The notes: generated by a model from the sequence alone, not told the origin. 64,000 nucleotides of DNA from a virus (IMGVR_UViG_3300029511_000167); one strand, 5' to 3'; numbered from the stretch's first letter, positions 11,508-43,886 are shown. Program-made: numbers and translations.

Positions 11508-11579
11508 TGTTTCTGAAGAGATTCGAACTCTTAATGCCCAGTCCGTAGCAGGGCGGTTTTTCCATTAGCCTACAGAAAC
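11508..11579 (-). tRNA. tRNA-Arg(ACG)-like, with mismatches in the D and anticodon stems
   Basis: Acceptor GTTTCTG/CAGAAAC, T-arm AAGAG-TTCGAAT-CTCTT, anticodon loop CTACGGA. The anticodon stem CCCTG/CTGGG has one T-T mismatch. The D-stem is imperfect. Confidence 0.5.
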
Positions 11580-11583
11580 AAAC

Positions 11584-11663
11584 TGCCCATGAAGGGATTC
11601 AAACCCTTATGCGTTCGCGCTTGATTTTGAGTCAAGTATGTATACCAATTCCATCACATGGGC
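11584..11663 (-). tRNA. tRNA-Leu(CAA)
   Basis: Acceptor GCCCATG/CATGGGC, anticodon arm CTTGA-CTCAAAA-TCAAG, 11-nt variable arm, T-arm AAGGG-TTTGAAT-CCCTT. Confidence 0.8.
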
Positions 11664-12072: not shown

Positions 12073-12152
12073 TGCCCGTGAAGGGATTCGAACCCTTATG
12101 CTTTCGCGCTTGATCCTAAGTCAAGTGTGTATACCAATTCCACCACACGGAC
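12073..12152 (-). tRNA. tRNA-Leu(TAG)
   Basis: Near-duplicate of the Leu(CAA) backbone with anticodon loop CTTAGGA. Acceptor GTCCGTG/CACGGGC. Confidence 0.8.
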
Positions 12153-12169
12153 ATGAGATGCAATGATAA

Positions 12170-12241
12170 TAGGCAGCCTGAGATTTGAGCTCAGAAGACT
12201 GGTTTTGGAGATCAGCATGTTACCGTTACATCAAACCACCC
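12170..12241 (-). tRNA. tRNA-Trp(CCA)-like, degenerate (acceptor stem has 3 Watson-Crick and 4 G-U pairs)
   Basis: Anticodon loop CTCCAAA (the typical Trp loop), T-arm CTGAG-CTCAAAT-CTCAG, D-stem ATGT/ACAT. The acceptor GGGTGGT/GGCTGCC pairs only with wobbles. It may be a pseudo-tRNA. Confidence 0.4.
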
Positions 12242-12246
12242 AAACA

Positions 12247-12319
12247 TGTGCCTAGCGGGAATTGAACCCGCGACCTCCGGATTAAAAGTCCGCTGCTCTT
12301 CCGACTGAGCTACAGGCAC
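12247..12319 (-). tRNA. tRNA-Lys(TTT)
   Basis: Acceptor GTGCCTG/TAGGCAC, D-arm TAGCTCAGTCGGAAGAGCA, anticodon loop CTTTTAA, T-arm GCGGG-TTCAATT-CCCGC. Confidence 0.8.
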
Positions 12320-12324
12320 ATAAA

Positions 12325-12397
12325 TGACCTCGGCGGGAATTGAACCCGGCATCTGAAGCTTGAAAGGCTTCTGTCCTAACCACTAGACCACGAGGCC
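12325..12397 (-). tRNA. tRNA-Glu(TTC)
   Basis: Acceptor GGCCTCG/CGAGGTC, anticodon arm GAAGC-CTTTCAA-GCTTC, T-arm GCCGG-GTTCAAT-TCCCGC. Confidence 0.8.
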
Positions 12398-12401
12398 GAA
12401 A

Positions 12402-12473
12402 TACGGCTGGTTGGATTTGAACCAACGAATACAGGAGTCAAAGTCCTGTGCCTTACCTCTTGGCGACAACCGT
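12402..12473 (-). tRNA. tRNA-Gln(TTG)
   Basis: Acceptor ACGGTTG/CAGCCGT, D-arm TCGCCAAGAGGTAAGGCA, anticodon arm CAGGA-CTTTGAC-TCCTG, T-arm GTTGG-TTCAAAT-CCAAC. Confidence 0.8.
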
Positions 12474-12479
12474 ATAAGA

Positions 12480-12563
12480 TACTCCTGAAGGGACTTGAAC
12501 CCTCACGAATTTGCATTCAACGGATTTTAAGTCCGTAGCGTCTGCCAATTCCGCCACAGGAGC
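12480..12563 (-). tRNA. tRNA-Leu(TAA)
   Basis: D-arm TGGCGGAATTGGCAGACGC, anticodon arm ACGGA-CTTAAAA-TCCGT, long variable arm, T-arm with TTCAAGT loop. 84 nt. Confidence 0.8.
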
Positions 12564-18821: not shown

Positions 18822-19727
18822 TTATGAGCGCTCTGGTTCTGTATTTGATAAGCTTTCTGAATGGTTCCTGGTTTCTAATGACAGCTCCTTCTTGGTATCA
18901 GAAATCATCCCATCCAGTGCACTTAAAGGTTCTTTCGTATACTCATAGAGAAAATCTTTAAGAACTGAGTAATACTTTGCCTGCTCTTTTTCAAAAAACT
19001 GGCAAAGTTCTTTGTACTCTTTTTTGGTTTGAGCCGTATTGAGTGCATGATAGTATTCAAGCTTATTCTCATCCTGAATAATAACGGGAATGATGTCAGA
19101 CGCAAGGCATTCCCGAAGCAGCAGCAGGCGGCCGGTTCTTCCGTTTCCATCTTGAAATGGATGAATGGTTTCATATGCAGCGTGAAACCTAGCCAAGCCT
19201 TCCACTGTATGTTTCTTTTCCGGGTCATAGTTTTGTAACAGTTCTTTCATCCGGTCGGAAACCTCATCTGGCCTTGCTGTTTTAATATTTGCAACCTGGT
19301 TTAATCGATTCTTATACTCTCCTACTGGATAACCATTTGCCAAATCTTCGAAGACTCCTGATTTTAATCGAAAATGAAATTTCTTTATCAGGTCTTCGGA
19401 TAGCGGTTCATGAAGAGTCTTAAGCATCTCATTGAACATAGCGAAATGTCCTGTCATCTCTTCAATGTCTTTCGCCTTAAAAATTTCTCCATCAGCCAGT
19501 ATCGTTCCTGTATCAAACAGAGACGCGGTCTGATCTGGAGTTAAGGTACTGCCTTCAATCTTATTGGAGTTATATGCCATTAGTTTTTGTGTTTTTGCAT
19601 AAATTCCACTCCGATCCATCTTTTCATGTTCAATTTTGAATCGTTCTTTTAACTGCTTTACCAGCGTTTCTTCATCATAAGTAGATAACTCATGAAAAGA
19701 GTTTTCTAAGATTTTATTAATATTCAT
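18822..19727 (-). CDS. fic: Fic family protein (AMPylase-type, with SxxxEG inhibitory motif)
   Basis: Canonical Fic motif HPFQDGNGRTGR. N-terminal SNKIEGS matches the [S/T]xxxE[G/N] autoinhibitory helix. Confidence 0.8.
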   Translation of the reverse strand: MNINKILENSFHELSTYDEETLVKQLKERFKIEHEKMDRSGIYAKTQKLMAYNSNKIEGSTLTPDQTASLFDTGTILADGEIFKAKDIEEMTGHFAMFNEMLKTLHEPLSEDLIKKFHFRLKSGVFEDLANGYPVGEYKNRLNQVANIKTARPDEVSDRMKELLQNYDPEKKHTVEGLARFHAAYETIHPFQDGNGRTGRLLLLRECLASDIIPVIIQDENKLEYYHALNTAQTKKEYKELCQFFEKEQAKYYSVLKDFLYEYTKEPLSALDGMISDTKKELSLETRNHSESLSNTEPERS

Positions 19728-19738
19728 GTTGATACTCC

Positions 19739-21205
19739 TTATCGTTCTATCTCTTCTTTTTCCAATTTCCCTGTTTCCATCTGGTCAATGATTTGTGTTA
19801 GTTTTTTTGAAAAGTCATGGAGAGATTCGTACTTTAATAAGAATGTTCCAAACGCCAACTCTTCATCATTTTCTTTCACATTTAATTCTTTCGTTTTTCC
19901 ATCGACACAAAAAGTCAGCTCTGGAACCTGCTTTGGAATAATCTCAAGCTCCAGGTTTCCATCTTCTTTTTCGTTTATGAAGCAGGTACCCATCAGACTC
20001 TTCTCAATGGAAGCTTTGATTTTTTCCAGATAGGTTTCCTGTTCTGAAACGTCTTTCTTTTCTGGTTTTGGTTTTTCTGGTTCCATATCTGGAATGAATA
20101 CGTCTTTTGTATATAAGGTTTCTTTAAAAAGCAGTGCAGCTGCCTGTTTATGAATCAGTTCTTCCAACCACTTGACTCGTTTTTTTGAAAAGTTTAAATC
20201 TCCCTGGAAGGAAAACTCGAAGTCTTTTAACGAAATTAAGTCTTTTCTGATTTCGCTTGTCACGGCCAGCTGCCCGACTCGGGTAAAATCGTCTCCGATT
20301 CGTGGGCCATATTCCAGAAGTTTTGTTCCAATTTTTGTGAACTCATCTTCTTCCACATAAGGAAGCATAGCCATATTTAAGTCAAAAACTGGAGCCATTT
20401 TAATTGGCTCTAATGTGTCGTTATGAATCAGAATTCCATAATTTCCCAGATGCCTGTCAACGTTAAAGGTTAATGCATCCAGCACCAGCATCCTTCGAAA
20501 GGTATCTTCTGAACCGATTGATGAAAAATACTGTAACACAGTATCCAGTGTCTTATTTTCCAGTGGAATTTTCGCCATAGGCACGTAGCCATATGTCTCA
20601 TTGGTAAATAATTGGCATTTTGTAGCGAGTTTTCCATGAAGCTTAACCAAATGATACGGAACGCATCCCGGACACAGCTGCAGCGCAATCTCAGACGCCA
20701 AGGCTTCGCAGTATGGCTCCAGTCCTGCATTTCTGGCTCCTTCCGAGCCTCTCTTGTAAAGAAAAATGCCATCGCTTTCTTTTTTCCAGCACTTTTTAAA
20801 GGAACCTTCTGTGGAAAGTTCTGGAGATGTATCAGAAAATTGAAAGTCCTGGAGACCTACACCTTCAAACGCCAGCTTTGAAATGATTTCATTGAATTCA
20901 TTTTGATAGAGAGAAACATCTTCCCATTTAAGAGTTTCATTTTCTGTTTTAACCCAAAACGTATCGTTTAAGGATGCGGCATGAGTGACTTGAATAAATC
21001 CAGACGTGGTACCACAGCCGCACTCTTCCATGATTTTTCGAATACTGGCATTGTGTTTTGAGGCTTTCCTATTTTCAAGCCATTCATTGATCTCATTCAT
21101 ACCAATGGGTAGTTTTCCAGATATTTCATCAAACACATAGTTTTCTGCTAACACTCCAGCGTCATGAAATTTTGCCACAATCTGGTTCTTGTTCATCAAA
21201 AACAT
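19739..21205 (-). CDS. HipA-like Ser/Thr kinase family protein
   Basis: LDALTFNVDRHLGNYGILI resembles the HipA catalytic-loop region. It is a paralog of 54029..55084 (shared SWEDI..QN.F block). ATG start MFLMNK with RBS gaggaggaaa. Confidence 0.6.
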   Translation of the reverse strand: MFLMNKNQIVAKFHDAGVLAENYVFDEISGKLPIGMNEINEWLENRKASKHNASIRKIMEECGCGTTSGFIQVTHAASLNDTFWVKTENETLKWEDVSLYQNEFNEIISKLAFEGVGLQDFQFSDTSPELSTEGSFKKCWKKESDGIFLYKRGSEGARNAGLEPYCEALASEIALQLCPGCVPYHLVKLHGKLATKCQLFTNETYGYVPMAKIPLENKTLDTVLQYFSSIGSEDTFRRMLVLDALTFNVDRHLGNYGILIHNDTLEPIKMAPVFDLNMAMLPYVEEDEFTKIGTKLLEYGPRIGDDFTRVGQLAVTSEIRKDLISLKDFEFSFQGDLNFSKKRVKWLEELIHKQAAALLFKETLYTKDVFIPDMEPEKPKPEKKDVSEQETYLEKIKASIEKSLMGTCFINEKEDGNLELEIIPKQVPELTFCVDGKTKELNVKENDEELAFGTFLLKYESLHDFSKKLTQIIDQMETGKLEKEEIER

Positions 21206-21238
21206 AGCTTTCCTCCTCAAAACATCAATTCTATGTCA

Positions 21239-21268: not shown

Positions 21269-21322
21269 GAAGGCACAGCTCCTTCTCTTTCTATGAAAAA
21301 AGGGCCTTAAGCCCTTTCTTAG

Positions 21323-22090
21323 TTAGTTAAGCCTAACAATCTGTTCATATAGCAAAATATCCTTATCGTTCATCGCATAGTTCAGGTGCATATGTCCCAT
21401 GAACCATTTTCTGTATTCCATTTTCTGTCTTATTTCTTCCAGATATTTTGTTAGAATGTCCTGTTCATAGAGACCTCGCCCAAGTAAAGCAATCATACTG
21501 GCCGATGGGCTGTGTGTTAGAATGAAGTCTACCTGATACTGATTCTTTTCAAGGTTTTTTCTTCCATTTTCCATTTCTTCCTCAGTTGGAAGCTCTTCTT
21601 CCCACCAGGAAAGTCCCTTTACCCGGAATCTGTATTTTCCTTCTTTTTCAAGTTTCTTAGCTTTTTCCTTCCATTTTTCATCCTTCCCATCTAGAATGCC
21701 ATCAGAAATGTCATGGGAGGAGGCTCCGCCAAAGGCAAAGAATTTCTTTCCTTCTAGGGTATAAATCTCTCCTCTTCTAAGCCTTACCACATTGGGTCTG
21801 ATTTCATTGACAAGGCCGCCATTCCATTCTTTTAATGGGAACTGGTTAAGTCTTGGGATATTATCATGATTCCCATCGATAAATGCTGTGGTAAACGGTT
21901 TCTCTTTTAACCAGTTTAAGTTATAATTTTCTTTTTTTGTTTCTTTGGGATCCCAGATGAGACCAAAATCGCCTAACTGTATCATGGTATTTTCTGCCGG
22001 ATCTATTCCAAACTCTTTCTGTTCGTAAAAAATTTTAGAGGAGAACCTGGATGGATCTCCATGAATATCTCCTGTTACATAAATGCCCAT
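21323..22090 (-). CDS. calcineurin-like metallophosphoesterase
   Basis: Motifs GDIHGD, GDFG, GNHD and GHMH. A terminator agggccttaagccct lies downstream. Confidence 0.7.
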   Translation of the reverse strand: MGIYVTGDIHGDPSRFSSKIFYEQKEFGIDPAENTMIQLGDFGLIWDPKETKKENYNLNWLKEKPFTTAFIDGNHDNIPRLNQFPLKEWNGGLVNEIRPNVVRLRRGEIYTLEGKKFFAFGGASSHDISDGILDGKDEKWKEKAKKLEKEGKYRFRVKGLSWWEEELPTEEEMENGRKNLEKNQYQVDFILTHSPSASMIALLGRGLYEQDILTKYLEEIRQKMEYRKWFMGHMHLNYAMNDKDILLYEQIVRLN

Positions 22091-22107
22091 AAATCATTCT
22101 TCCTTCC

Positions 22108-22533
22108 TTAAGACTGAACGGGTTTCCATTTCGCTCGGATGTCAAAAAAATCTCCAATGGCACGAATCGTAAGACCCAACTGCTTACTCAGCTGCTTCTT
22201 CTGCTGCAGCTGCATTTCTTCTGTTTCTGTACTGATTATATCTGAAAAGGTTCTGGCAAGGCTGCTTTCTGGCAGCTTATTCTTCTCTGCACAGGATACA
22301 ACCGAATTTAATACTTCTTTTAATCTCTTAATTAACGAATCCATCCATTGACTATCTTTGCTTTCCAGTACCAGATCCATTTCTTCTTCTGTCAGGTCTG
22401 AAAAACAGATGCTCTCCCATTTTCCACTTCGTTCTATTCTGAAGTATACACCATCCAAATCTCTATTCATAGTCTTTTTCCTTTCCCTGAAGCAAAACAA
22501 GATATGCTTCAAAATATGAGTCTGTATTTCCAT
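22108..22533 (-). CDS. hypothetical protein
   Basis: 141-aa ORF. It overlaps the 3' end of 22463..23014, so its start is uncertain. Confidence 0.4.
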   Translation of the reverse strand: MEIQTHILKHILFCFRERKKTMNRDLDGVYFRIERSGKWESICFSDLTEEEMDLVLESKDSQWMDSLIKRLKEVLNSVVSCAEKNKLPESSLARTFSDIISTETEEMQLQQKKQLSKQLGLTIRAIGDFFDIRAKWKPVQS

Positions 22534-23014
22534 AAAACAATTGATACAGACTATCGCAATAGTTCATCCACTGCTCATTAGTTCCAAAATTTGGAATCCA
22601 ATAATGATGTTCTTTCTCATCTTCTGGAATAGTTCCGGTTAAGGAATATTCCAGATACATGCGAAGAAGATAACGGCTGATATCGGCAGAATACGCAGAA
22701 GTTCCACGCTTTTTACCTAAGAGCTTCTCTATATGATGTTTCAGATAACTATAATTTAGATAAATGAACTGAGGCTTGTACGGATCTGATACACTACTAT
22801 CTTTCGGCTTATGAAGATGTCTGACTGTTTTTTCCAGGATTTGCCTTAATGGAAATAAGAACATTACATCAAAATTTTCTGGATTGCTTAGCTTATAGGG
22901 ACTTTCTTTTAACTGCTCGGCCAGAGATTTTGAAAGTGTCCCATATTCTTTGTCTTCTTTTGAAGTAATGCTTTTTAACATTTCTTCCATTATTTCTCTT
23001 AATTCGTTTTCCAT
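22463..23014 (-). CDS. hypothetical protein
   Basis: 183-aa ORF downstream of, and co-oriented with, the radical SAM gene. Confidence 0.5.
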   Translation of the reverse strand: MENELREIMEEMLKSITSKEDKEYGTLSKSLAEQLKESPYKLSNPENFDVMFLFPLRQILEKTVRHLHKPKDSSVSDPYKPQFIYLNYSYLKHHIEKLLGKKRGTSAYSADISRYLLRMYLEYSLTGTIPEDEKEHHYWIPNFGTNEQWMNYCDSLYQLFYGNTDSYFEAYLVLLQGKEKDYE

Positions 23015-23026
23015 TTTTTTCCTTTC

Positions 23027-23878
23027 TTATGTTCTGTTTTCCTGTTTCCATCCGTTTGAACAAACGCCATTTTCATAGAGAACCAACTGTTCATTACTTT
23101 TATTTTTTGTTAGCAGCCGCAGACTTTTCACAAAGTCAGCCGCAGAAGCCCGCAGCATTGGATTCACTAAAAAGCAGGAACGCTTAAGCGTTATCAAAAG
23201 CGGATGCCCTGGCAGCTGCAGCTGCGTCTGACACCCATATGCGAATGGACTTTTGTACTTCACACCGTATGCTTTTTCAAATGATACATAAAGGTCTTTT
23301 TCAAATTGAAGTTCGTTAATCTTAACATGCTGAACGCCACACTCTTCCATTTTTTTTAGAAATGCATCAATTTCTTCTTTGGTATCAATCTGACCTTTTA
23401 TGAGGTTTATTGATACCCGTACTTTGTCAGCATAAGCGTTGCAAATTTTCTTTGTTAAGGCAATCCTGTCATGTCTTGATGAAGCATGAAGAATGTCATT
23501 ATTTTTCTCTGGATCATAATGCTGCAAAGAAATATTAAGACCATCAATGTAGTCCATAATTTTTGTAAATGTATTCCAGTTATCTTCTACCGTCTTTGGC
23601 AAAGAAGTTGTAACATAGATATGATCCACAAAGGATCTGATTCCTCTTACATACAGCAGCAGCTCATGCGGCAGCAGAAGCGGTTCTCCACCAAGAACCA
23701 AAATCTCTTTTTTTCCTGTTTTAATGGTTTCCATGATTAGCCGGTTTACATCGGTTTTCTCGCCTTTCACTCCATTTCGCTCAATACAAAACGGACAGGT
23801 GTTATCGCACCTCTTTGTAAAGCGAACGTCCAGGCTATCTTTATAAAAACCATCACATGAATTATTAAATGAAATCAT
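23027..23878 (-). CDS. radical SAM domain protein (CX3CX2C; viperin/MoaA-like N-terminal layout)
   Basis: FTKRCDNTCPFCIE near the N-terminus and LVLGGEPLL. Nine Cys in total. The RBS aaaggag lies directly after the stop of the upstream micro-ORF. Confidence 0.7.
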   Translation of the reverse strand: MISFNNSCDGFYKDSLDVRFTKRCDNTCPFCIERNGVKGEKTDVNRLIMETIKTGKKEILVLGGEPLLLPHELLLYVRGIRSFVDHIYVTTSLPKTVEDNWNTFTKIMDYIDGLNISLQHYDPEKNNDILHASSRHDRIALTKKICNAYADKVRVSINLIKGQIDTKEEIDAFLKKMEECGVQHVKINELQFEKDLYVSFEKAYGVKYKSPFAYGCQTQLQLPGHPLLITLKRSCFLVNPMLRASAADFVKSLRLLTKNKSNEQLVLYENGVCSNGWKQENRT

Positions 23879-25778: not shown

Positions 25779-27028
25779 TTATTTTGTGTCAGGTGTTTCA
25801 TCTGCTTTTTCTTCAGCAGCATTTTTCTCTTTTCCAGCTTCTTCTACTTTCTTCTTTTCCACTGGTTTCTTTTCTTCCTTTGCTTTTTCTGACCTTTCTT
25901 CTTCTTTTACGGTCTCTTCCAGAATGTCCGCTGCAATTGCTTTTTTCGCTGGGTCTGAATCTAGATCTGTTAGTCCGGTCAAATTGATGTTTCGTGTTAC
26001 CTTCGCATCATAAGAATCCGCTCTCATAATTTCAGCCAGATCCACACCGGTTGTCTCTTTCATAGACTCAAACAGCTTCATCATAACGGCAGGAACATTG
26101 CCAGCAATCGCATCCACAGAGTCATTGCTGCTGCCGCCGCCAATGATTGTAATCTTATCAATCTGGGATAATGGTTCTGCAATTTTTCCTGCAATTTCAG
26201 GAAGAACCTTAATCATCATCTCGGCCATGGCAACCTTGTTGTATTTCTGATAAGCTTCTGCTTTCTTTTCCATTGCTTCCGCTTCCGCAATACCTTTCGC
26301 CTGGATCGCAGCCGCCTCCGCTTCACCTTTTGCACGGATTCCTTCTGCTTCCTGAAGCATCGCGTATTTGTCTGCTTCGGCCTGGGCTCTTCTTGCTTCG
26401 GCATCTTTTTCCTGCTCATATTTCTTTGCTTCGGCTTCTCTCTGACGTTTTGCAAGAGTTGCAGCAGCTTCCTGCTCTACTTTATATCGCTCTGCGTCTG
26501 CTTTTCGGTTGATTTCTGCTTCCAGTCTCTGCTGTTCTACTTCAACCTGCTGCCGGTTTAACTCGGCTTCTCTCTCTGCTCTTGCAATCTGTGCATTTAC
26601 AGTAGTCGTCTGAATGGTCTTTTCCTGCATCTGCGCCTGAATCTTATACGCAGCATCAGCCTCAGCCAGTTTCGCATCCGCCAGTTTTTTCAGCTCTGCT
26701 TTCTTGATTTCCAGCTCATTATTTTTCTGGGCAATCTCTGTCTGAGCCATTACTTTTGCATCATTCGCAGCCTTATCCGCCTCCGCCTGAGCAATAGCAA
26801 CGTCACGTTCTGCCTGCGCTCTTGCAATGGAAGCATCTTTCTTGATTTTGGCTGTATTATCTGCACCCAGATCTCGAATGAGACCATTTTCATCTGTTAC
26901 ATTCTGGATGTTGCAGGATAAGATTTCAATTCCCAGTTTTGCCATGTCCTTGGAAGCTTTTTCCATTACCTGGTCAGAGAAAGAATCTCGATCTGTATTG
27001 ATAGCTTTTAATGATAATGTACCGATGA
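25779..27028 (-). CDS. floT: flotillin (FloT/YuaG-like) exon 2, the C-terminal two thirds
   Basis: An EA-rich flotillin repeat region plus the conserved KVLPEIA...IDKITIIGGGS block. The reading frame continues upstream of the annotated M to the intron junction. Confidence 0.75.
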
Positions 27029-27764
27029 ATAGCCATAGGTAAACGTTTGATATTATCTCCGGCTTTTCCCTGGCTCCACACCGTGCGTGAGAGTTTCCTG
27101 CTCACACGGCGCTCCATCGTTAGTAAAACTTTTTTCGATGATTTCGTTTTCCTAACGACTTGAGGCTGTTGCTCCATTCTCATTACAAGAACTTCATCGC
27201 TCGTGCCTCTACTTTCACAACGATTAAAATAAGTTATATTTTTCAATTTTCCTTATTAACGCTTCTCTGGATTTTGGACTCCTCTTCGTTCGTTGCTTCC
27301 CTTGTTCCAATAAACCTATCTGTGCATATACTTTTAGGCCGTTCCTTTAACCCTGAGTGCTTGAATATGCCTGTAACATATTAAGGACTTTCATAGCGAA
27401 AATTTTTACTAATCCTCACACTCTCCACCTTTTGTGGAACCTACCATTTCTAATAGGTCATGCTATAGAGTTGTACCCTCGGAACTTCGTCTCTGTTTTT
27501 CACACATTCTAGCCATGAGTATTTTATAGAACTCCGAACTATCAAATACAAATTCCACCTCTGGAATCCTTTCGTGTATTTCTACTTACGGTATTCTTCA
27601 TTCGACTTCATCGAGCTTTATACAGACAATCTTCCAAACGATTGCTGCATATCGAATATTAAGTATGACGTTTCAAGGCGTTACCCTATCATTCCATCAT
27701 TCGGTTTATCAGTTCAATAATTTAAAATTATTGGCTAAACTTTTCATTTAGCAACAAGTCGCAC
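27029..27764 (-). mobile_element. ORF-less group II intron (about 736 nt) interrupting the flotillin gene
   Basis: The 5' end is GTGCG. A domain V hairpin GAGCGCCGTGTGAGCAGGAAACTCTCACGCACGGTGT lies about 40 nt from the 3' end. The intron ends in ...GGCTAT (AY). Splicing restores ...LQGNMRE-IIGTLSLKAINTDRDSFSDQVMEKASKDMAKLGIEIL, colinear with FloT. Confidence 0.75.
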
Positions 27765-28158
27765 TCTCTCTCATGTTTCCCTGCAGGGAATCTTTAAGCT
27801 CCATAGCAATGTCATCTGGATTTTTGTTTAAAAAGTTCTTAGCAGCCAGCTTAATGCCATTTGGCGTCTGTTCGATACGAACTTTTGCAACTGCGTCTAC
27901 ATCCACATTAATAAAGTCATTGGTTGGAACCGGTTCTCCTGTTTTAATATCGACTGTCATCTGCCCTAAGTACAGGCGATCCAGTCTCTCTAAAAACGGG
28001 ATTCGGATGCCGGAACGGCCAATCAGGATTTTCGGTTCTTTTTTAAGTCCAGAAATAATAAATGCCTTATCCGGTGGTGCCTTGACATACCCAAGGGCGG
28101 CAATAATAATTAAAAAGATAATGAGTGCTGCACCAAGCAGCCAGAATGAAATTTTCAT
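27765..28158 (-). CDS. floT: flotillin (FloT/YuaG-like) exon 1, N-terminal TM helix plus start of SPFH domain
   Basis: MKISFWLLGAALIIFLIIIAALGYVKAPPDKAFIISGL matches the flotillin N-terminus. RBS aaaaggagaaaagcat. Confidence 0.75.
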
Positions 28159-28309: not shown

Positions 28310-29098
28310 ATGTATCAGATTAAGAATTATTTGAATAATGATGATGTTAAAATCATCGACAAACTTGGGCCCTTTCAGGTCATTGAATATCAAAGAGACT
28401 TGAGTGTAACACCGGAAAGTGCTTTGTTTGCTTACTACTGCAATGCAATGAATGTCCGAAAACGTCAGGTGGTTTGCGATTTAAAACAGGCGAATGTTAC
28501 TATTCAGGCAGGTGCTATGCAATGGATGCTTGGAAATGTTGCAGCGACCACTGGCTTAAAAGGTGTGGGAGATCTGTTTGGAAAGGCAATCCGTGGAAAG
28601 GCGACGGGAGAAGCTGCTATTAAGCCAGAATATAAGGGAGACGGTCTTTTGGTATTGGAACCTACTTATCGCCATATCCTTCTCATTGATGTGTCTGAGT
28701 GGAATGGTGGAATTGTTCTTGATGACGGGCTTTTTCTTGCCTGCGACTCAAGCCTTCAGCACAAAGCTATTATGCGAAGCAATTTAAGTTCTGCTGTTGC
28801 TGGTGGAGAAGGACTCTTTAATCTGAGCATCAACGGATCCGGTGTGGTTTGCCTAGAGTCTCAGGTCCCAAAAGAAGAGCTGATTGAAGTATCTCTGGAA
28901 AACGATGTAATTAAAATTGATGGAAATATGGCGATTGCTTGGAGCCGGAGTTTGGAATTTACCGTGGAGCGTTCTGGGAAAACACTGCTTGGCTCTGCTG
29001 CTTCTGGCGAAGGATTAGTAAATGTCTATCGCGGAACCGGAAAAATTCTAATGGCTCCAACTGCCAGACCTCCAGTTGTCACATTCTCAAAACAATAA
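28310..29098 (+). CDS. AIM24/DUF124 family protein
   Basis: 262 aa with VTIQAGAMQWMLGNV, GGEGLFNLSINGSGVVCLES and GEGLVNVYRGTGKILMAP blocks typical of TIGR00266/AIM24. Confidence 0.7.
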   Translation: MYQIKNYLNNDDVKIIDKLGPFQVIEYQRDLSVTPESALFAYYCNAMNVRKRQVVCDLKQANVTIQAGAMQWMLGNVAATTGLKGVGDLFGKAIRGKATGEAAIKPEYKGDGLLVLEPTYRHILLIDVSEWNGGIVLDDGLFLACDSSLQHKAIMRSNLSSAVAGGEGLFNLSINGSGVVCLESQVPKEELIEVSLENDVIKIDGNMAIAWSRSLEFTVERSGKTLLGSAASGEGLVNVYRGTGKILMAPTARPPVVTFSKQ

Positions 29099-29831: not shown

Positions 29832-30611
29832 TTATTTTTCAAATACATTTCGAAATGCATTCAGATTCGGGCCTGACGGAATCGCAAATACTACGGTGTC
29901 AAAGCTTTGTCTCTGCTTTAATGCCTCTGCGAAACACTCTGCTGTTTCTTCTGCTGCTTGCCCAAATACACCACATCCGAATGCGCCTAGAATCAGTATA
30001 TCAACTTTTTTGGAATTTGCAATATCAACCACAAACTGAATCCTGTCTTTTAATGCTTTTAGATTTTCTTCGTCTGATACATGCTGATACGTTTGTGCCG
30101 CGTGTTTGTTTGGCGCAGCGCAGGTAATAACATCGCAATGAACAGATTTTCCATTTCGTTCAAATCGCACATTTGGCGTATACAGCGCCCGATTGGTATA
30201 GAGAGCCTTGTTTTTGTGTGCCTGATTCCACTCATAATAGCTTTCTTTTTTTGAAAGCACGTTATAGAGAAATGACTCATGGCATAAGGACTCTTCCTGG
30301 GCAGAACTTCCATTTAAGAACATGCCACCCGGATTCTTATAGGAGGCAAAATTTAATACAGCAGTTTTTCCATCCTTTGCGTGTCTCATGATACTTTCTA
30401 CACTGTCGGATTCTTCCAAGAGAATTTTCATTCTTCCTTTTTCATCCATTCTTTTTGCTGTTTTTTCAAATGGTACTGCTTTTTCGGTTGCTGTTAATAC
30501 GATTGTCTCTGCGGCTGCCTTTGCAATTTCGTCTGCATGAGTTTCTTCCATTAATTTCGTATGAAGAACGGCCTTCTTTGCACGTTCTTCCTTGTTTTTC
30601 CAATAGCTCAT
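29832..30611 (-). CDS. macrodomain protein of the bacterial PARG-like / TIGR02452 (DUF2263) type
   Basis: LNFASYKNPGGMFLNGSSAQEESLCHESFLY contains the PARG signature GG-X8-QEE. C-terminal ILGAFGCGVFGQ. Confidence 0.65.
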   Translation of the reverse strand: MSYWKNKEERAKKAVLHTKLMEETHADEIAKAAAETIVLTATEKAVPFEKTAKRMDEKGRMKILLEESDSVESIMRHAKDGKTAVLNFASYKNPGGMFLNGSSAQEESLCHESFLYNVLSKKESYYEWNQAHKNKALYTNRALYTPNVRFERNGKSVHCDVITCAAPNKHAAQTYQHVSDEENLKALKDRIQFVVDIANSKKVDILILGAFGCGVFGQAAEETAECFAEALKQRQSFDTVVFAIPSGPNLNAFRNVFEK

Positions 30612-30622
30612 ATGGTTTCTCC

Positions 30623-32803
30623 TTATTTTTCTTCTGTTTTCTGTTTTCTTTTTTCATAAAGTTTCCTGACATGGCAGATATTGCTGCTTGGATCGTTAAG
30701 CTGAATGATTCCTTTTTCCAGTAATTCTTTTGCAAATACAATGAATCTGAAATCATCTGCTGATAATGCAGCCATATTTAGCAGCTGCAGCCGCCCAAGC
30801 AGGCCGCGTCTGCGTTTCCATGTCTTATAGTAGTTTAATTTGAGTTTGAACATGAAGTGGTTTGTATCTTCAAGCACAAACCCTTCAATGGGCTTTCCAT
30901 TATAGGTGTATGTACCATTCTGATCCGATTTTAGCAGGTTCTGATACCAGGCATCAAATTCATCGTAGGTGTTAAACTTAAATACCAGCTTTTTCGGCTG
31001 CAGATGGTAGGCAGCTGCAAAGGCCAATAGCTCTTCATAGCTTTTTTTCTGGAAATCAAACTCGTTTTTAATGATATCCAGAAGATAGACCTCGCTGTCT
31101 TCATAATCGATGATATGCGGGTCGTTTACCTGGTCCACACACTCAAAGACCAGCGTTTCAGAATGTTCTTTCAGATACTTCTTTAATGATTCTATCGTTT
31201 CTTCTGAAAGTTTCTTATAAAGCATATCTTTAAAACAGCCTGCGGCTTTTCCCGTCGGATCTGATTTTGTGGTGATAAACAGCTCATCTTTTTCTTTGTT
31301 AAAGCTTACCATACCAAGAAATCCATTTTCTTTAACATACGCTTCTACTGGAAATACCAGTTTTTCTTTCAGATTATGATACATGGTTTCTTCTACTTCG
31401 TCTACAGCGAAAAACTTATCATATCCACGACAGACCAGTTCTTCTGTTTTTGTATTAAGGTAAAGTCCACGGGCCTTGACCGTTCGTTCATTCCATACCC
31501 GGTTATTGAAAGCTTCCCTTGAAAAATTAAAAGAAGAAATCGAATCAAACTTTTTTTCTTTAATGTACGGGTCTTTTCTTAAGGTTTCAATTGCATCATG
31601 AACTGTTGAAAAATCAGTTTCCGGCTTTCGGTATACGGTGTTTCTAATTTCAGTTGTTTCTATCCCAGCAGCAGAGACAACAGCAGCCCGCAAGAAGCCG
31701 CCAAGTTCTACTTTTCCTTCTAGATTGTAGTTTCGATTGGTAGAATGAACTGGATAGCCAAAATTTCGATGTCCGTGAATCTGGTAGATATGATTGGGCA
31801 TGGATGCATCAAACATTTCTTCGGCTTCTTTTACATCAGGATAACCGCCAACACCGTGGATCATCTGTTCGGTAGAAAGAAAGATTGGATTTCCAGGAAT
31901 GGTACTTACACCGCCATGGCAGCCAAAGACAACTTTATCGTGATAGCGGTAGTATACACACTGAGCAAGCTTTCGATAAAAAATACGTACTTCTTTTTTT
32001 GAAATACCTGCTGCTTCCAGTTCTTTTGCCGTATGCTCCTCAAATTCTTTTGACGGAGTATGCTCATTATGTGCCCATAGGTGTAACCACCGCTCATGAT
32101 TTCCTTCCAGCAGCAGAACATTTTCTCTTTTTGAAAGGTTCATCATAAGTTTTAAAGTGTTCACATTATCTGGGCCGCGATCCAGATAGTCGCCATGGAA
32201 AATGTAAAACTCATCTTCTTTCAGTCCGCCTTTAAGATAACACTGCAATGCGTCAAAGCACCCGTGAATATCTCCAATGTGGTGGATCTTCTTATATTTA
32301 CTGAAATCCAGCGGCATAAGCAGCAGTTTTTCAAACTCATCTGGCTTGATAAATGGAAAATCTGCATAAAACGGCAGCTGCAGCCACTTACAAAACTTTT
32401 CCATCACCTCATCTGGCACTTGTTCTACCTGGCTGCGGCTACGGTTGCGGCGCATCGCATCTGCGAGGCTAATATCCGTAAAATCCACACCTATAATGCG
32501 GTAGCGATAGGTTTTTGCAAGGGTGCGATACTTATTTACATCTTTCTGAAGAATATTAGTGGCGTCAATGATTAAAAATTCACCTCGCGCCATTCTCTTT
32601 TCTGCAATCTTTGTTAGAAGCTCCCACACTTCCTTATCGTTCATTCGGGATGTTTTAATCCTTCCATCAATACCCAACACTGGGCCTTCATAAAGTCTTC
32701 GAATAGTATCTGAGCTTAATGTATAAGGCTCCAGCTGGTGTTCTTTTATCCAGGTTGTTTTTCCAGAAGCTGGAATTCCTCTAAGTAATACTAGTGTTCT
32801 CAT
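30623..32803 (-). CDS. pnkp: polynucleotide kinase-phosphatase Pnkp with C-terminal ligase-like nucleotidyltransferase domain (RNA end-healing/sealing enzyme)
   Basis: N-terminal P-loop LRGIPASGKTT, as in a 5' kinase. Central calcineurin-type phosphoesterase motifs IGDIHGC, GDYLDRGP and GNHE. C-terminal covalent-NTase-like motifs EGFVLED and FKLKL. No hen1 gene is adjacent. Confidence 0.75.
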   Translation of the reverse strand: MRTLVLLRGIPASGKTTWIKEHQLEPYTLSSDTIRRLYEGPVLGIDGRIKTSRMNDKEVWELLTKIAEKRMARGEFLIIDATNILQKDVNKYRTLAKTYRYRIIGVDFTDISLADAMRRNRSRSQVEQVPDEVMEKFCKWLQLPFYADFPFIKPDEFEKLLLMPLDFSKYKKIHHIGDIHGCFDALQCYLKGGLKEDEFYIFHGDYLDRGPDNVNTLKLMMNLSKRENVLLLEGNHERWLHLWAHNEHTPSKEFEEHTAKELEAAGISKKEVRIFYRKLAQCVYYRYHDKVVFGCHGGVSTIPGNPIFLSTEQMIHGVGGYPDVKEAEEMFDASMPNHIYQIHGHRNFGYPVHSTNRNYNLEGKVELGGFLRAAVVSAAGIETTEIRNTVYRKPETDFSTVHDAIETLRKDPYIKEKKFDSISSFNFSREAFNNRVWNERTVKARGLYLNTKTEELVCRGYDKFFAVDEVEETMYHNLKEKLVFPVEAYVKENGFLGMVSFNKEKDELFITTKSDPTGKAAGCFKDMLYKKLSEETIESLKKYLKEHSETLVFECVDQVNDPHIIDYEDSEVYLLDIIKNEFDFQKKSYEELLAFAAAYHLQPKKLVFKFNTYDEFDAWYQNLLKSDQNGTYTYNGKPIEGFVLEDTNHFMFKLKLNYYKTWKRRRGLLGRLQLLNMAALSADDFRFIVFAKELLEKGIIQLNDPSSNICHVRKLYEKRKQKTEEK

Positions 32804-32884
32804 ATTTCTTCCTCCATGTTTGATTTTCTCTTATAATGTGGAAAAAAAAGAAAAGATAAAGAAAAAAGAGAGGAAGTTCCTCTC

Positions 32885-33472
32885 TTAAATATATTCTCCT
32901 TTGATATGACCGGATACGATTCCGTTTACTTCCAGAAATGCCATCCACTTTTCTACGGCTTCATATACCTGCACGGCAACCTTGTTTGGCTCTGAGTAGC
33001 TTTCTTTTGATAACATTGCCTGATACTCATAAGGCTGACAAAAATCATCATCCAGTACATCAATCCGAAAATCGGTTGGATCGTCTTTATTAATGGAAAT
33101 GGAAAAACTGATACTGGATACGATTCCACGGCAGAAATACCAGTATCCTTCTCTATAATCCGTAAAACCAAGGGTCCGCATTTCTTCTTCTGGCAGTAAA
33201 TGAATCTGAATCTTTTTGTTGATACCACGATCATTTACCTCAAAATCTGGAAACGTCAGATATGGTTTCTTCTTTTCAATCTTCATAGGTTCTGGCTGTG
33301 GCTCATCCCACCATCCTTCTATCTTTGAATAGGTTCGATTGGAATCTGCATCTTTCCACTGATTGTTTCCCATATATCTACAGGCAACTACATTTGGTTT
33401 TCCAAATTTAATAGTCGTTGTCCAATATACGTTTCCCTTTTTTGCTTCTTTTTCGTTTGCTTTCATCCACAT
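32885..33472 (-). CDS. hypothetical protein
   Basis: 195-aa ORF. Confidence 0.5.
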   Translation of the reverse strand: MWMKANEKEAKKGNVYWTTTIKFGKPNVVACRYMGNNQWKDADSNRTYSKIEGWWDEPQPEPMKIEKKKPYLTFPDFEVNDRGINKKIQIHLLPEEEMRTLGFTDYREGYWYFCRGIVSSISFSISINKDDPTDFRIDVLDDDFCQPYEYQAMLSKESYSEPNKVAVQVYEAVEKWMAFLEVNGIVSGHIKGEYI

Positions 33473-36214: not shown

Positions 36215-36404
36215 ATCTTTTTTCTCCTCTCTATATTTTTCTGATGTTACAAAAATAGTATGCAAGAATTGGTACTTCTTTAAGAAGTCAGAAGAAAAAG
36301 AGGAAGAAGCTCTTCTTTCTTTTCCATTTTCTATTTCCTTCTTCTTATATCACTATTGTTGGTATAAAAAAAAGAGGTGCAAAAACACCTCTTATCACAG
36401 CTTC

Positions 36405-37046
36405 TTACTCAGCGGCTGCTTCACTCTCTACATCTGTCTCTGTCTCAGACTCTGCAACTGTCTCGGCTTCCTCTTCTGCTGCCGTTTCATTTGCAACATC
36501 AGCTGCAGACTCATCAGAATCTACGGTTGCCTCATCGGTCTTACTCTCATCGGTTTCAACACTCTTTGTCGTCTCTGCGCTGCTTTCTTTCTTTTCATCA
36601 TCTGTAATAGTTAAGGATTCTGCATCATCCACTGGCTCGATTTCGTATACACGGCTGTAGATCGGCGGTAAGCTTCTGGTAGCAATGGCACTGTGATGCA
36701 CCATATACTTGGTTCCAGGTTCCATTTCCTCCGGAACAATCGTGAATTCACTTACCAGTGCCTGGAACTCATTTCCTTTTTCATCGATAAAGATTAACTT
36801 ATCCTGGGTGCCATTCTCATCTTCCATCGGTTCTGAATACTGGTAGGTAGCTACGGTCTGCATTACAGCAGTTGCATCCGGCTGCGTCTCATCCATTGGT
36901 GTAATCGGGACATCAGCATCCTCAATTGTCTCTCCATCTACGCCAATGTGAACGACCGGATCCTGCTTCTTTGCACAACCAGTAAACATCATGCAGGCGG
37001 AAGCTGCAACTGCAGCACACAGTAACATCTTTTTTGTTTTTTTCAT
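36405..37046 (-). CDS. acidic lipoprotein
   Basis: Start MKKTKKMLLCAAVAASACMMFTGC (lipobox). D/E/T-rich C-terminus. Terminator hairpin agaggtg-caaaaa-cacctct at about 36375-36400. Confidence 0.6.
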   Translation of the reverse strand: MKKTKKMLLCAAVAASACMMFTGCAKKQDPVVHIGVDGETIEDADVPITPMDETQPDATAVMQTVATYQYSEPMEDENGTQDKLIFIDEKGNEFQALVSEFTIVPEEMEPGTKYMVHHSAIATRSLPPIYSRVYEIEPVDDAESLTITDDEKKESSAETTKSVETDESKTDEATVDSDESAADVANETAAEEEAETVAESETETDVESEAAAE

Positions 37047-37220
37047 AATATTTTTCTCCTCTTTTTGGTTTAACAATGTTAGTATGAAAGATCCCACAAC
37101 GAAAACTGGGATTTTTTAAAAGGTATCAAAAATAGTGATACCAGGCATGAAAAAAAGAAAGAAGAAAGAATTCCCTGAAATGTTTCAAGACAGGGAACTC
37201 TTATCGTTTCTTAATCTTTT

Positions 37221-37562
37221 TTATACTAGCTTCTTTTTTGATGCTGGGTGAGCCATCTGCTTTCTCATGTAAGCCTCAAATCTCTCCACGATCATCTCCC
37301 GCTGCTTTACAATGGTACGGTTTAACTTTCTAACGGCTTCTCTTCTGCCAGTCTCTTCATCATAAGGATCTGCTTCGTGGCATTTAACTCTGGCCACTAA
37401 CTTATCCTCGCCATACAGCCAATCCTGCGCCATCATCCAGTCCAGATCAATCCAGGGATACCTGACTGCGATAAGTGCAATTCCATCTACTGCGTGGCCG
37501 ATCTCAACTGCGGTTGTATATGCTCCGTTCACTGCAATTTTAATATTTCTTTCATTTCTCAT
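37221..37562 (-). CDS. hypothetical protein
   Basis: 113-aa ORF. Motif catacTATAAT 37 nt upstream. Confidence 0.5.
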   Translation of the reverse strand: MRNERNIKIAVNGAYTTAVEIGHAVDGIALIAVRYPWIDLDWMMAQDWLYGEDKLVARVKCHEADPYDEETGRREAVRKLNRTIVKQREMIVERFEAYMRKQMAHPASKKKLV

Positions 37563-37684
37563 GATTGGTTCTCCTTATTTAAAAAATGTTCTAATTATAG
37601 TATGAGAGAAATTCTCAAAACGGTGCGCCTTAATTTAAAAAATATCAGTAATTATGATATTCACTCAAATGAATCCGTTTTTTT

Positions 37685-37954
37685 CTACATCATTACTTTT
37701 CCGGTCAGGGAATCGGACTCGTTTGCCACAAAGTATGCAGCTGCTTCTGCTACATTAATGTAGATGCGCATGGATTTTAACTTTTCAGAATATGCAGCAG
37801 CAAATGCAACGGCAGCTTTTTCTTCGATCTCTTTCATATCGATCTGGCGTCCATTTAACTCAAGCACTACGGTATTTTTGGGTTTTACTGCTCTTTTCCT
37901 GGTTTCTTTTTCTTTCTTCTCTTCTTTCTTCATCTCTTTTGAAATATCAATCAT
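37685..37954 (-). CDS. hypothetical protein
   Basis: 89-aa ORF. Motif agtatg at 37993-37998. Confidence 0.45.
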   Translation of the reverse strand: MIDISKEMKKEEKKEKETRKRAVKPKNTVVLELNGRQIDMKEIEEKAAVAFAAAYSEKLKSMRIYINVAEAAAYFVANESDSLTGKVMM

Positions 37955-38633
37955 AGTAATTACCTTCCTTTTTTAATTTTATTTTTTCTTTAGTATGAAA
38001 GATGAAAGGAAAAAATTGAGAAATGATGTATCAAAAATCCTGATACTTTTAAAAAATGAAAGAAAAAGGGAGAGGAAACTCCAGGAAAGATAAGAAGGAA
38101 TATTTTACAGTAGCTGCAAATGCGGATGCGGTGGCAGATGGGAAAGGGAATCGGCAGCAGGTACGGGTGTAACTGTTAAACAGACGCAGACGAATGAGGT
38201 GGGCAGCTGCAGCTGGGAGGCAATTGAGATTGAAACTGAAAAAGGAAAAAGAAAGAGGAAAAATGGATGGATTCGCAGTGTAAGGAAAAAAAGAGAACTG
38301 AGGTGGTCACATTGGGTGCTAGGTTTATGAAAGGAAAGAAAATGAAAAAGGAAAGAAGGAAAAAGAAAAAAAGGAAGAAAATATATCTTTTTCGGTAAGT
38401 CTATACATTGTGACGAATTTTCATTTTTTTGGTCTCTTTATTACTTATTACGCATTTTTTCTTCCTGCCTCATAAAATCACTTTTTTCCTGCGTATTTTC
38501 GTGAGTTTCTTCTCTTTTTTACAGGGAAAAATGTGCGGAAAAAAGTATTGAAAAAAGGCCTGTAAAAAACAGACCCTTTTAACAATATCTCCTAATTTAG
38601 CTGTTCTACTTTTCCTATCTCCTATTCTCTTTT

Positions 38634-40831: not shown

Positions 40832-41455
40832 ATGAAAAATGATATGCGGCCGCAGCTGCGTTTTCCTGGGTTTGCAGATGCGTGGGTAGAGAAGAAGCTG
40901 GGCGAGGTAGGCAATACTTTTACTGGTTTATCAGGTAAAACAGCTGATGATTTTGGGCATGGAAATGCTTCATTTATAACTTACATGAATGTTTATTCAA
41001 ATCCAGTGGCCAACCCAGAAATGGTTGGACAAATAGAAATAGATCCACGGCAAAAAGAAGTAAATGTGGGAGATGTATTTTTTACGACTTCATCAGAAAC
41101 ACCCGAAGAAGTTGGAATGTCAAGTGTTCTAAAAGAAAAAAACGGTATAATGTATCTTAACAGTTTTTGTTTTGGTTTTAGACCATCCCTGACATTTGAT
41201 TTAGATTATCTTGCATATTTGCTTCGCTCAGAATTTGTACGGAGAAAGATCAAAATTTTGGCTCAAGGAATTTCCAGATATAATATCTCAAAAAACAAAA
41301 TGATGGAAATAGAAATTCAATATCCTACTCTTCCAGAGCAGCATCTCATTGGAACGTTCTTCAGCTCCCTGGATCGCCTTATTGCCCTTAATAAGCACAA
41401 GCTCTCGGCCATGAAAGAATATAAAAAGTCCATGTTGCAGCGAATGTTTGTATAA
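40832..41455 (+). CDS. hsdS: type I restriction-modification specificity subunit HsdS, half-size with a single target-recognition domain (orphan)
   Basis: N-terminal LRFPGFADAW..LGEV and C-terminal conserved PTLPEQHLIGTFFSSLDRLIALNKHKL...SMLQRMF blocks. No hsdM or hsdR in the window. Confidence 0.65.
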   Translation: MKNDMRPQLRFPGFADAWVEKKLGEVGNTFTGLSGKTADDFGHGNASFITYMNVYSNPVANPEMVGQIEIDPRQKEVNVGDVFFTTSSETPEEVGMSSVLKEKNGIMYLNSFCFGFRPSLTFDLDYLAYLLRSEFVRRKIKILAQGISRYNISKNKMMEIEIQYPTLPEQHLIGTFFSSLDRLIALNKHKLSAMKEYKKSMLQRMFV

Positions 41456-41839: not shown

Positions 41840-41920
41840 GTTAACGATGCGAATTGGTCAGCAAGCGGTCTCGAAAACTGTCGGTCTTTGGACTTGTGGG
41901 TTCGAATCCCACCGTTAACG
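41840..41920 (+). other. tRNA-like element (perfect 7-bp acceptor pairing plus canonical T-arm, but no cloverleaf D/anticodon arms); possible att core
   Basis: 5' GTTAACG ... GTGGG-TTCGAAT-CCCAC-CGTTAAC-G, followed by the terminator aaaaaaaagcaccaaacaggtgcttttt at 41924-41960. Confidence 0.35.
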
Positions 41921-43795: not shown

Positions 43796-43886
43796 TTATA
43801 TAATGGGAAAAAAATGGGAAGATAAAGAACGAAAATCATTTGACTACAAAAAATTGCATACTATGGCAGAAAAAAGAAAAAAGGAG

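Follow-up and report, generated by a model that had tools for sequence, protein, structure and literature searches.

Group II introns that lack an open reading frame (ORF) and reside in protein-coding genes have been documented in Clostridium perfringens (plc and tcpF), in the Bacillus cereus group, and in phages. An 834-bp ORF-less intron in the C. perfringens alpha-toxin gene plc (Ma et al. 2007, J Bacteriol 189:1633) is described as 94 to 96% identical to the intron sequence of tcpF-carrying plasmids (PMC6628447), and, according to the latter source, it is reportedly spliced in vivo during expression, with intact toxin being made. A recent survey curated 20 phage group II introns, six of them ORF-less, alongside thousands of IMG/VR hits, and lists the intron in the terminase gene of the Listeria jumbophage LPJP1 as class IIB, D1D4-5, CGC, and ORF-less (Merk, Jones & Eddy, NAR 2025, PMC12350094). 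ORF-less introns that are mobilized or spliced in trans include the B.c.I7 copies of B. cereus E33L and introns of Trichodesmium and Thermosynechococcus (PMC2504315, PMC2882425). Here, we describe an intron of this kind that splits a flotillin gene in IMGVR_UViG_3300029511_000167, a 64,000-nucleotide (nt) stretch of DNA cataloged as viral (hereafter, the window). The first-pass annotation of the window, made from the sequence alone, called this arrangement unusual; the cases above make it less so.

Taken together, the data make it very likely that the minus-strand segment 27764-27029 is a genuine class IIB-type group II intron whose reverse transcriptase (RT)/maturase ORF was lost or never present, and which was recently gained as a sense-strand insertion in a FloT-like flotillin gene on the chromosome of a Lachnospiraceae-like gut bacterium, where it would be spliced by the mechanism proposed below.

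A group II intron within a flotillin gene

An Rfam cmscan search of the whole 64 kb returned exactly two group II matches, which bracket a 736-nt segment in the correct strand and order: RF02004 (group-II-D1D4-5; 171.1 bits, E=1e-38), which covers 27717-27523(-), and RF00029 (domains V and VI; 46.1 bits where the gathering score is 40, E=7e-06), which covers 27114-27029(-). These scores are far above chance; the RF02004 model, which spans D1 to D4, was matched over its full length, and no further group II signal was detected in the window at a permissive threshold of E≤1. The final base of the RF00029 match is the proposed 3' end of the intron, and both termini (i.e., 5' GUGCG at 27764-27760 and 3' ...GGCUAU up to 27029) fit the group II consensus (5' GUGYG/3' AY). 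The first-pass annotation had placed an ORF-less group II intron with precisely these coordinates and ends (27029-27764, GTGCG...GGCTAT) in a FloT-like gene and had proposed a covariance-model search as a check. Its proposal is borne out by these matches, and also by the alignment breaks at empty alleles, an uninterrupted protein, the pairings of exon-binding sites with intron-binding sites (EBS1-IBS1 and EBS3-IBS3), and the branch-point A described below.

The intron separates two minus-strand ORFs (Table 1). The first encodes an N-terminal membrane anchor, with the hydrophobic sequence MKISFWLLGAALIIFLIIIAAL, and the first part of an SPFH domain; the second, which runs from about 27028 onward in another frame, encodes the remaining SPFH domain, a coiled-coil/Flot region, and a C-terminal tail. 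In silico splicing of 27765 to 27028 yields a 1,644-nt ORF for 547 amino acids (...QGNMRE/IIGTLSLKAINTDRDSF..., with the slash marking the junction), which matches Pfam Band_7/SPFH (83 bits; 3e-23; residues 28-205) and Flot (30 bits). The SPFH frame is restored exactly, as the first reading of the sequence had deduced from the colinearity of the two ORFs with FloT after removal of 736 nt. Unspliced read-through meets a stop codon five codons inside the intron (...RESATCC and stop). The spliced flotillin is 63 to 78% identical to flotillin/SPFH proteins of Lacrimispora and other Lachnospiraceae, and gene callers give two ORFs, of 136 and 395 amino acids, in every filled contig examined. A gene of the AIM24 family (window 28310-29098, plus strand) is divergent from the flotillin gene and is almost the sole plus-strand gene thereabouts; the arrangement of flotillin-DUF4349 with AIM24 is kept in all strains examined.

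Empty alleles and uninterrupted proteins

Independent proof of the intron boundaries came from alleles that lack the insertion. BLAST alignments of seven syntenic empty loci (L011 to L017) to the window break exactly at 27765 and 27028, the subject coordinates are contiguous across the break (10394 to 10395), and the flanks in the closest empty alleles are 99.6 to 100% identical to the window. A search of 5.8 billion proteins from public assemblies recovered a 547-amino-acid protein (P0001) that is 100% identical to the predicted spliced product, as well as others (P0003 to P0010) that are 98 to 99% identical to it; the contigs coding for P0001 and P0003 carry the syntenic neighbors (i.e., AIM24, PARG-like, Pnkp-ligase, DUF4349, and radical SAM genes) and no insert. 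A flotillin homolog (69% amino acid identity) on the human-fecal scaffold MT836322.1 (L001), which was deposited as a phage scaffold, gave a two-piece match in which the span in the record is 736 nt shorter than that in the query; this homolog is uninterrupted at the junction (...QGNMREIIGTLSLK...), where the DNA (GAGA/TCATCGGTAC) is conserved. At least six independent assemblies from other samples contain the filled allele with intact exons, at 99.3 to 100% identity over 9 kb, as does a polished 3.51-Mb contig. The agreement of the empty alleles, P0001, and MT836322.1, together with the six further filled contigs, establishes that the feature is real, precisely delimited, and no assembly artifact.

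Domain anatomy and absence of an encoded protein

A consensus fold (RNAalifold) of the window intron aligned with two full-length ORF-less relatives (three sequences) comprises 133 pairs, of which 53 show a compensatory change in at least one sequence, and yields domains I, II, III, V, and VI (D1, D2, D3, D5, and D6), with a bulged A in the last. With D4, a hairpin in the single-sequence fold, all six domains are recognizable in the modeled structure (Table 1). The closing stem of D1 shows CG/GC/GU and UA/AU/CG exchanges across the three sequences. D1 also contains the motif pair CAUGG (from 27517) and CCUAAAAG (from 27338), a putative tetraloop receptor assigned from motifs. In D5 (GCGCCGUGU-GAGCAG-GAAA-CUCUC-AC-GCACGGUGU), a 9-bp lower helix is followed by an AC bulge, a 5-bp upper helix, and the GAAA tetraloop. 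The first-pass annotation had recognized the D5 sequence and this tetraloop correctly but gave the catalytic triad as AGC; the Rfam register and the fold identify it as CGC, and the bases read as AGC straddle the J4/5 linker. A729 (window 27036), the eighth base from the 3' end, is unpaired in both the consensus and the single-sequence folds.

The intron encodes no RT or maturase, as had been concluded from the sequence. D4 is only about 44 nt long and therefore leaves no space to house an intron-encoded protein (IEP). The longest stop-to-stop stretches in the intron are 74 codons (sense) and 83 codons (antisense), and Pfam searches of its nine open stretches gave nothing better than E=0.018 and nothing related to RTs. 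Likewise, no RT was found among the ORFs of at least 390 amino acids in the 64-kb window. The flotillin intron thus lacks the RT/maturase of its own that an autonomous mobile retroelement carries.

Table 1. Features of the split flotillin gene, its intron, and the surrounding island (window coordinates)
Feature	Position	Strand	Remarks
Flotillin exon 1	27765..28158	-	ATG at 28158-28156, preceded by Shine-Dalgarno-like AAGGAG; ends ...AUG AGA GAG A
ORF-less group II (IIB-type) intron, 736 nt	27029..27764	-	Rfam matches, empty alleles, consensus fold
Flotillin exon 2	25779..27028	-	Starts UC AUC GGU...; stop UAA at 25781-25779
Domain I	27301..27758 (intron 7-464)	-	Closing stem CUUGUU/AACAAG; contains RF02004 match 27717-27523
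Domain II	27217..27296 (intron 469-548)	-	Consensus fold
Domain III	27162..27209 (intron 556-603)	-	Conserved core GAUGAAG...UUGUAAUGAGA
Domain IV	27116..27159 (intron ~606-649)	-	Hairpin of ~44 nt in single-sequence fold
Domain V	27078..27112 (intron 653-687)	-	CGC triad 27111-27109; AC bulge; GAAA tetraloop 27097-27094
Domain VI	27031..27075 (intron 690-734)	-	Bulged branch-point A
EBS1 UUUCGC	27396..27401 (intron 364-369)	-	In 23-nt terminal loop of conserved hairpin 27416-27384
IBS1 GAGAGA	27770-27765	-	Last six bases of exon 1
EBS3 A418	27347	-	Pairs with IBS3 U27028, first base of exon 2
Tentative EBS2 GCAUG	27459..27463 (intron 302-306)	-	4 bp with exon -11..-8
Tentative IBS2 CAUGA	27775-27771 (exon -11..-7)	-	Pairs with tentative EBS2
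Conflict-type genes	18822-19727, 19739-21220, 54029-55084, 55239-55886, 58361-59059, 53049-53675, 43746-44615, 40832-41455		

Exon recognition

The exon-binding sites were located with ten family members inserted at unrelated sites, i.e., the window intron, two C. perfringens tcpF introns, the LPJP1 terminase intron, two introns from gut scaffolds, three from Bacillus plasmids, and one from an Enterococcus faecium plasmid. For about 720 alignment columns of D1, pairing was scored between each intron and the exon flanking it. At exon positions -1, -3, -4, and -6, the best single column always fell within antiparallel columns 460 to 465, with all ten introns paired. The six-column block is paired at 56 of 60 positions, the next best position scores 35, and none of 2,000 permutations of the exon labels reached 56. 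This co-variation fixes EBS1 at intron positions 364 to 369. In the flotillin intron, five of the six EBS1-IBS1 positions are paired (U-A, U.G, U-A, C-G, G x A, C-G), the mismatch lying at -5. For the first base of the 3' exon, column 515 (A418) was the best of the ~720 and is paired in seven of eight introns, a small sample, through A-U, G-C, and U-A combinations; the A418-U27028 pair is thus the predicted EBS3-IBS3 contact of the IIB type.

The position of EBS2 is tentative. The register listed in Table 1 is common to four relatives (L105, Bmy, Bth, and Efm), and only one of 3,000 permutations reached the observed sum, yet other alignment windows score equally. Another EBS candidate, CUCAUG (intron 246-251), could form 6 bp with exon positions -11 to -6 and was rejected because it overlaps the CAUGG receptor-like motif common to all relatives. 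Two further candidates were discarded: AACUUU in the C. perfringens intron, which is one strand of an internal hairpin, and, for EBS3, an AG[A/G/U]AUG column that is paired in six of eight introns, versus seven of eight for column 515.

Relatives of the flotillin intron

Outside the species, the closest full-length DNA match (69% identity over 86% of the intron) is the ORF-less intron in tcpF of pCW3-like C. perfringens plasmids (e.g., pCP8533etx), which likewise matches RF02004 (192 bits) and RF00029. The plc/tcpF introns share with the flotillin intron the GUGCG...CUAU ends, the CGC triad, the same D6 with its bulged A, and an ORF-less, frame-restoring insertion inside a protein-coding gene. 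They differ in length (834 to 838 nt, about 100 nt longer through a larger D4), in EBS1 (GUAACC, which targets ...GGUUUU), and in their home, which is a conjugative plasmid or the toxin gene of a Clostridium. The tcpF site is occupied by the ORF-less intron in some plasmids (L019 3359-4196) and by an ltrA-containing version in others (L104 from 1426); the flotillin intron has no known full-length partner of this sort. In the ORF-less tcpF copy, a change in EBS1 breaks one IBS1 pair. In the related intron of an E. faecium plasmid (L101 3423-3755), D4 retains merely a 111-amino-acid HNH remnant. The tcpF pair and the E. faecium relative show stages of IEP loss in this intron lineage.

The terminase intron of LPJP1 (MZ422438 120219-120890) resembles the flotillin intron in its D1D4-5 family, class IIB, CGC triad, and 3' AT, and it too is ORF-less, of comparable length (672 versus 736 nt), and located in a conserved protein gene that has a known intron-less homolog. 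The two introns align end to end with compensatory changes, although identity is low outside the conserved cores. The flotillin intron resides in a bacterial chromosome island and not in a proven phage, and the LPJP1 genome has an RT-encoding sibling intron, whereas none was found for the flotillin intron.

RT-encoding relatives occur on plasmids of the B. cereus group (ltrA; L100, L102, L103, and L106) and on the human-gut scaffold MT837963.1 (L105). Their D1 is 64 to 69% identical and their D5-D6 region 77 to 82% identical to those of the flotillin intron, and EBS1 and EBS3 occupy corresponding positions in them, so that the co-variation test could be run. They are autonomous retroelements with an RVT_1 protein (with or without HNH) of 590 to 660 amino acids in D4, where the flotillin intron has 44 nt. 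The human-gut representative encodes a 657-amino-acid RVT_1 protein of a family that is abundant in gut assemblies. B. thuringiensis pIS56-285 carries two ltrA-containing introns of the family head to tail, about 175 nt apart (L100 2501-2583 and 2759 onward), and the first of these ends in ...CACUAA, not ...CUAU.

The trans-helped introns of B. cereus (B.c.I7), Trichodesmium, and Thermosynechococcus are similar as ribozyme-only derivatives, thought to rely on the protein of a full-length copy in the same cell. They differ in that multiple copies and a helper are present in the same genome; for the flotillin intron, one copy is known and a helper is hypothetical. On the basis of these comparisons, we place the flotillin intron among the known IIB D1D4-5 ORF-less introns of Firmicutes and their mobile elements.

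Presence/absence polymorphism

All 80 of the best Lachnospiraceae flotillin homologs gave a single uninterrupted match. The intron is also missing from the more divergent strains of the island (L014 to L017; 94% upstream identity) and from near-identical ones (L011 to L013), and there is no diversity of the intron among filled alleles, the exons and intron being identical in five of six contigs. Since other species and both divergent and near-identical strains are empty, and filled alleles show no intron diversity, gain is the parsimonious direction, and we infer that the empty state is ancestral and that the intron was gained recently. The likely route would be reverse splicing and reverse transcription by a trans-acting RT, or recombination with an allele that the intron had invaded earlier.

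Over 4.4 kb, the empty allele L013 differs from the window at just two positions, 11 and 35 nt upstream of the insertion site (27775 and 27799). The haplotype at -11/-35 is T/A in all seven empty sequences and C/G in all seven filled sequences, and both changes are synonymous. The chance that two random differences in 4.4 kb would both fall within 35 nt on one side of the site is roughly 6e-5. In the tentative IBS2-EBS2 helix, the C at -11 gives a G-C pair where the empty haplotype would have G.U. These changes could be a co-conversion tract of the 5' exon from a donor allele, a target variant preferred by the intron, or an adaptation after insertion.

Elsewhere in the island, strain differences are confined to sharply bounded patches of 4 to 15% divergence between identical stretches (e.g., 21300-23300, 31300-33300, and 36300-38100 against L006 to L009). 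This patchy divergence is that of a recombination mosaic, in which the flotillin gene lies inside an invariant block of about 8 kb. The lack of mismatches in a block around the intron in L008 could have pointed to an intron-driven sweep, a reading that was rejected, all strains being equally patchy over 20 kb.

Genomic setting

A polished bacterial contig of 3,512,663 bp (ENA ERZ27273576, contig_1093_polypolish) contains the window at 100% identity, at about 2.88 Mb. On a 106-kb contig, transposases mark the end of this island, and argC-argJ-argB come next. Among the 30 largest window ORFs are those for ClpS, a ClpB-like ATPase, choline-binding repeat proteins, two HipA-like kinases, Fic, a PARG-like protein, a kinase-phosphatase-RNA ligase fusion, RlaP, PBECR4, a PIN/NYN protein, RNase H1, TnpB, and radical SAM enzymes, as well as many ORFans; genes for virions, packaging, or phage replication (capsid, portal, terminase, tail, and polymerase) are absent from this set. 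A megablast search with 25 kb around the locus against 50,697 phage records gave no match, and against plasmids solely the D1 core of the intron was matched. The first-pass annotation spoke of a phage-like island, a label that is at best unproven given the absence of virion, packaging, and phage replication genes from these 30 ORFs. The locus most probably belongs to a bacterial chromosome as an accessory island, one in which conflict genes, RNA-repair genes, and ORFans are plentiful.

Several other features of the island are of note. Eight tRNA genes lie in two tight minus-strand clusters (11508-11663 and 12073-12563), with one isolated tRNA gene at 41840-41920(+), in a region filled with ORFans. 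A 726-amino-acid fusion of a P-loop kinase, a metallophosphatase, and a T4-type RNA ligase (Pnkp-like; 30623-32803, minus strand) adjoins a microbial PARG-like macro protein (29832-30611, minus strand), and an RlaP nucleotidyltransferase gene (60684-61751, minus strand) lies 28 kb from this fusion. Genes for Thg1, Macro, YpsA, and thymidine kinase are found just past the right edge of the window (L107/L108), and together these genes look like an RNA-repair or anti-toxin set. Conflict-type genes are dense (Table 1), comprising Fic, two HipA_C-like kinases, a PBECR4 nuclease, PIN/NYN, RNase H1, and JetD_C-like proteins, and an orphan specificity subunit of a type I restriction-modification system. 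A TnpB gene (IS605 OrfB/Cas12f-like) is located at 46741-47850(-); in another strain (L107 11249-12932), a Y1 transposase and TnpB stand beside RlaP, where the window has none, indicating that IS200/IS605 content varies among strains of the island.

Proposed splicing and alternative explanations

In the proposed mechanism, the gene would be transcribed through the intron, and D1 would dock the exons by EBS-IBS pairing. The 2'-OH of the bulged A729 in D6 would then attack the 5' splice site, the freed exon 1 would attack the 3' splice site, and the lariat would be released. The joined exons (...AGAGAGA/UCAUCGG...) would allow translation of the full 547-amino-acid flotillin, and unspliced RNA would give just the 136-amino-acid N-terminal fragment. 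Splicing is likely, because the closest tested relative, the ORF-less plc intron, reportedly splices in vivo, and because the motifs of the flotillin intron are intact. It is reasonable to suppose, as the first reading did, that flotillin expression would hinge on the folding of the ribozyme and perhaps also on a maturase acting in trans.

Several observations weigh against a recently gained, spliced intron. The EBS1-IBS1 helix has one internal mismatch, and the EBS2-IBS2 helix is short (4 bp) and tentative in location. The filled haplotype (C at -11, G at -35) was not seen in any intron-less sequence, P0001 being derived from genuine empty alleles only. The 64-kb window contained no source of a maturase, nor was one found on the 3.2-Mb (3,245,959-bp, empty-allele) or 3.5-Mb (filled-allele) contigs among the best 120 of more than 8,000 RT homologs retrieved with the IEP of the human-gut relative. 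The intact exons are no sign of purifying selection after insertion, because the filled alleles are virtually identical, and a dN/dS comparison among them has no power for the same reason. Mobility is deduced from a single site, since an exact match to the 35-nt domain V found no second copy or donor in IMG/VR or in JGI metagenomes. A structurally intact intron that does not splice in its host (e.g., for want of a compatible maturase), so that the filled allele is a very young flotillin pseudogene in which damage has not yet accumulated, is an unlikely alternative. The absence of an ORF in the intron and of an RT from the window, the imperfect EBS1 and weak EBS2 pairings, and the lack of any sign of selection on the split gene are as this alternative predicts, and bacterial group II introns generally need their own maturase in vivo (PMC2504315). 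It is countered by the integrity of all catalytic and recognition elements, by the occurrence of the filled allele in many independent samples, by the reported splicing of the plc intron, and by the abundance of related RT-encoding introns in gut bacteria. Moreover, the filled-specific C at -11 makes the tentative IBS2-EBS2 helix stronger, a fact more readily understood if pairing is important.

The other alternatives concern the origin of the insertion and the ownership of the locus. An assembly or annotation artifact, such as a chimeric join or a misassembled repeat mimicking an insertion, has a practically negligible probability: apart from the generic risk of metagenome assemblies, nothing speaks for it, and the same 736-nt insertion with identical junctions recurs in at least six assemblies of different studies and in a long-read polished contig, the insert being a complete group II ribozyme. 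Precise loss of an older intron from some strains, by recombination with cDNA copied from spliced mRNA or with an empty allele, is quite improbable. Either process would leave a precise absence, and alleles do move between backgrounds in this recombination mosaic, but all empty alleles, close or distant, carry T(-11)/A(-35), with C/G confined to filled alleles; L014 to L017 and the 80 homologs of other species are empty, and the zero diversity of the intron argues for its youth. We also doubt that the locus is owned by a phage (i.e., an integrated jumbo-type prophage or a phage-plasmid), which would make the intron another phage-borne group II intron like those of Merk et al. 2025. The tRNA array, the many ORFans on one strand, the Pnkp-RNA ligase fusion, PARG, and RlaP, the thymidine kinase and Thg1 genes just beyond the window, PHROG matches for several window proteins, the presence of the locus on a 305-kb contig as well, and the flotillin homolog on a scaffold deposited as phage would all suit such an origin. 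They are outweighed by the lack of capsid, portal, terminase, tail, and phage polymerase genes among the 30 largest ORFs, the 100% identity within the 3.51-Mb contig and the adjoining argCJB genes, the lack of a match in the phage records, and the 63 to 78% identity of the flotillin to ordinary chromosomal genes of many Lachnospiraceae.

Beyond the preferred reading of a chromosomal, recently gained, and probably spliced intron, a bolder one is that an ORF-less IIB ribozyme is mobile right now in human-gut Lachnospiraceae and entered a conserved chromosomal gene through an RT acting in trans, with C(-11)/G(-35) as a co-conversion tract or as an adaptation that tightens IBS2-EBS2. We regard this as possible, though on the whole rather unlikely.

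Significance

The locus involves no new mechanism: this class of ribozyme was already known, as were ORF loss and the idea of help in trans. In a full-text literature search, no paper linking group II introns with a flotillin host gene was found, and on this basis flotillin has not been reported before as the host gene of such an intron. The analysis corrects a likely annotation error, in which gene callers split the flotillin into ORFs of 136 and 395 amino acids, and contributes a well-documented example to the few known ORF-less group II introns that interrupt conserved bacterial protein genes. Its distinctive aspect is the population context: the filled and empty alleles differ by the intron and two adjacent synonymous bases, and both are found in many human-gut assemblies. 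This polymorphism gives the exact boundaries without experiments and provides a matched strain pair for two questions, namely, whether an ORF-less intron splices and what it costs its host gene. If the intron is indeed currently mobile, the locus would be a natural filled/empty pair for the study of trans-mobilization and of the splicing-gated expression of a membrane-microdomain scaffold.

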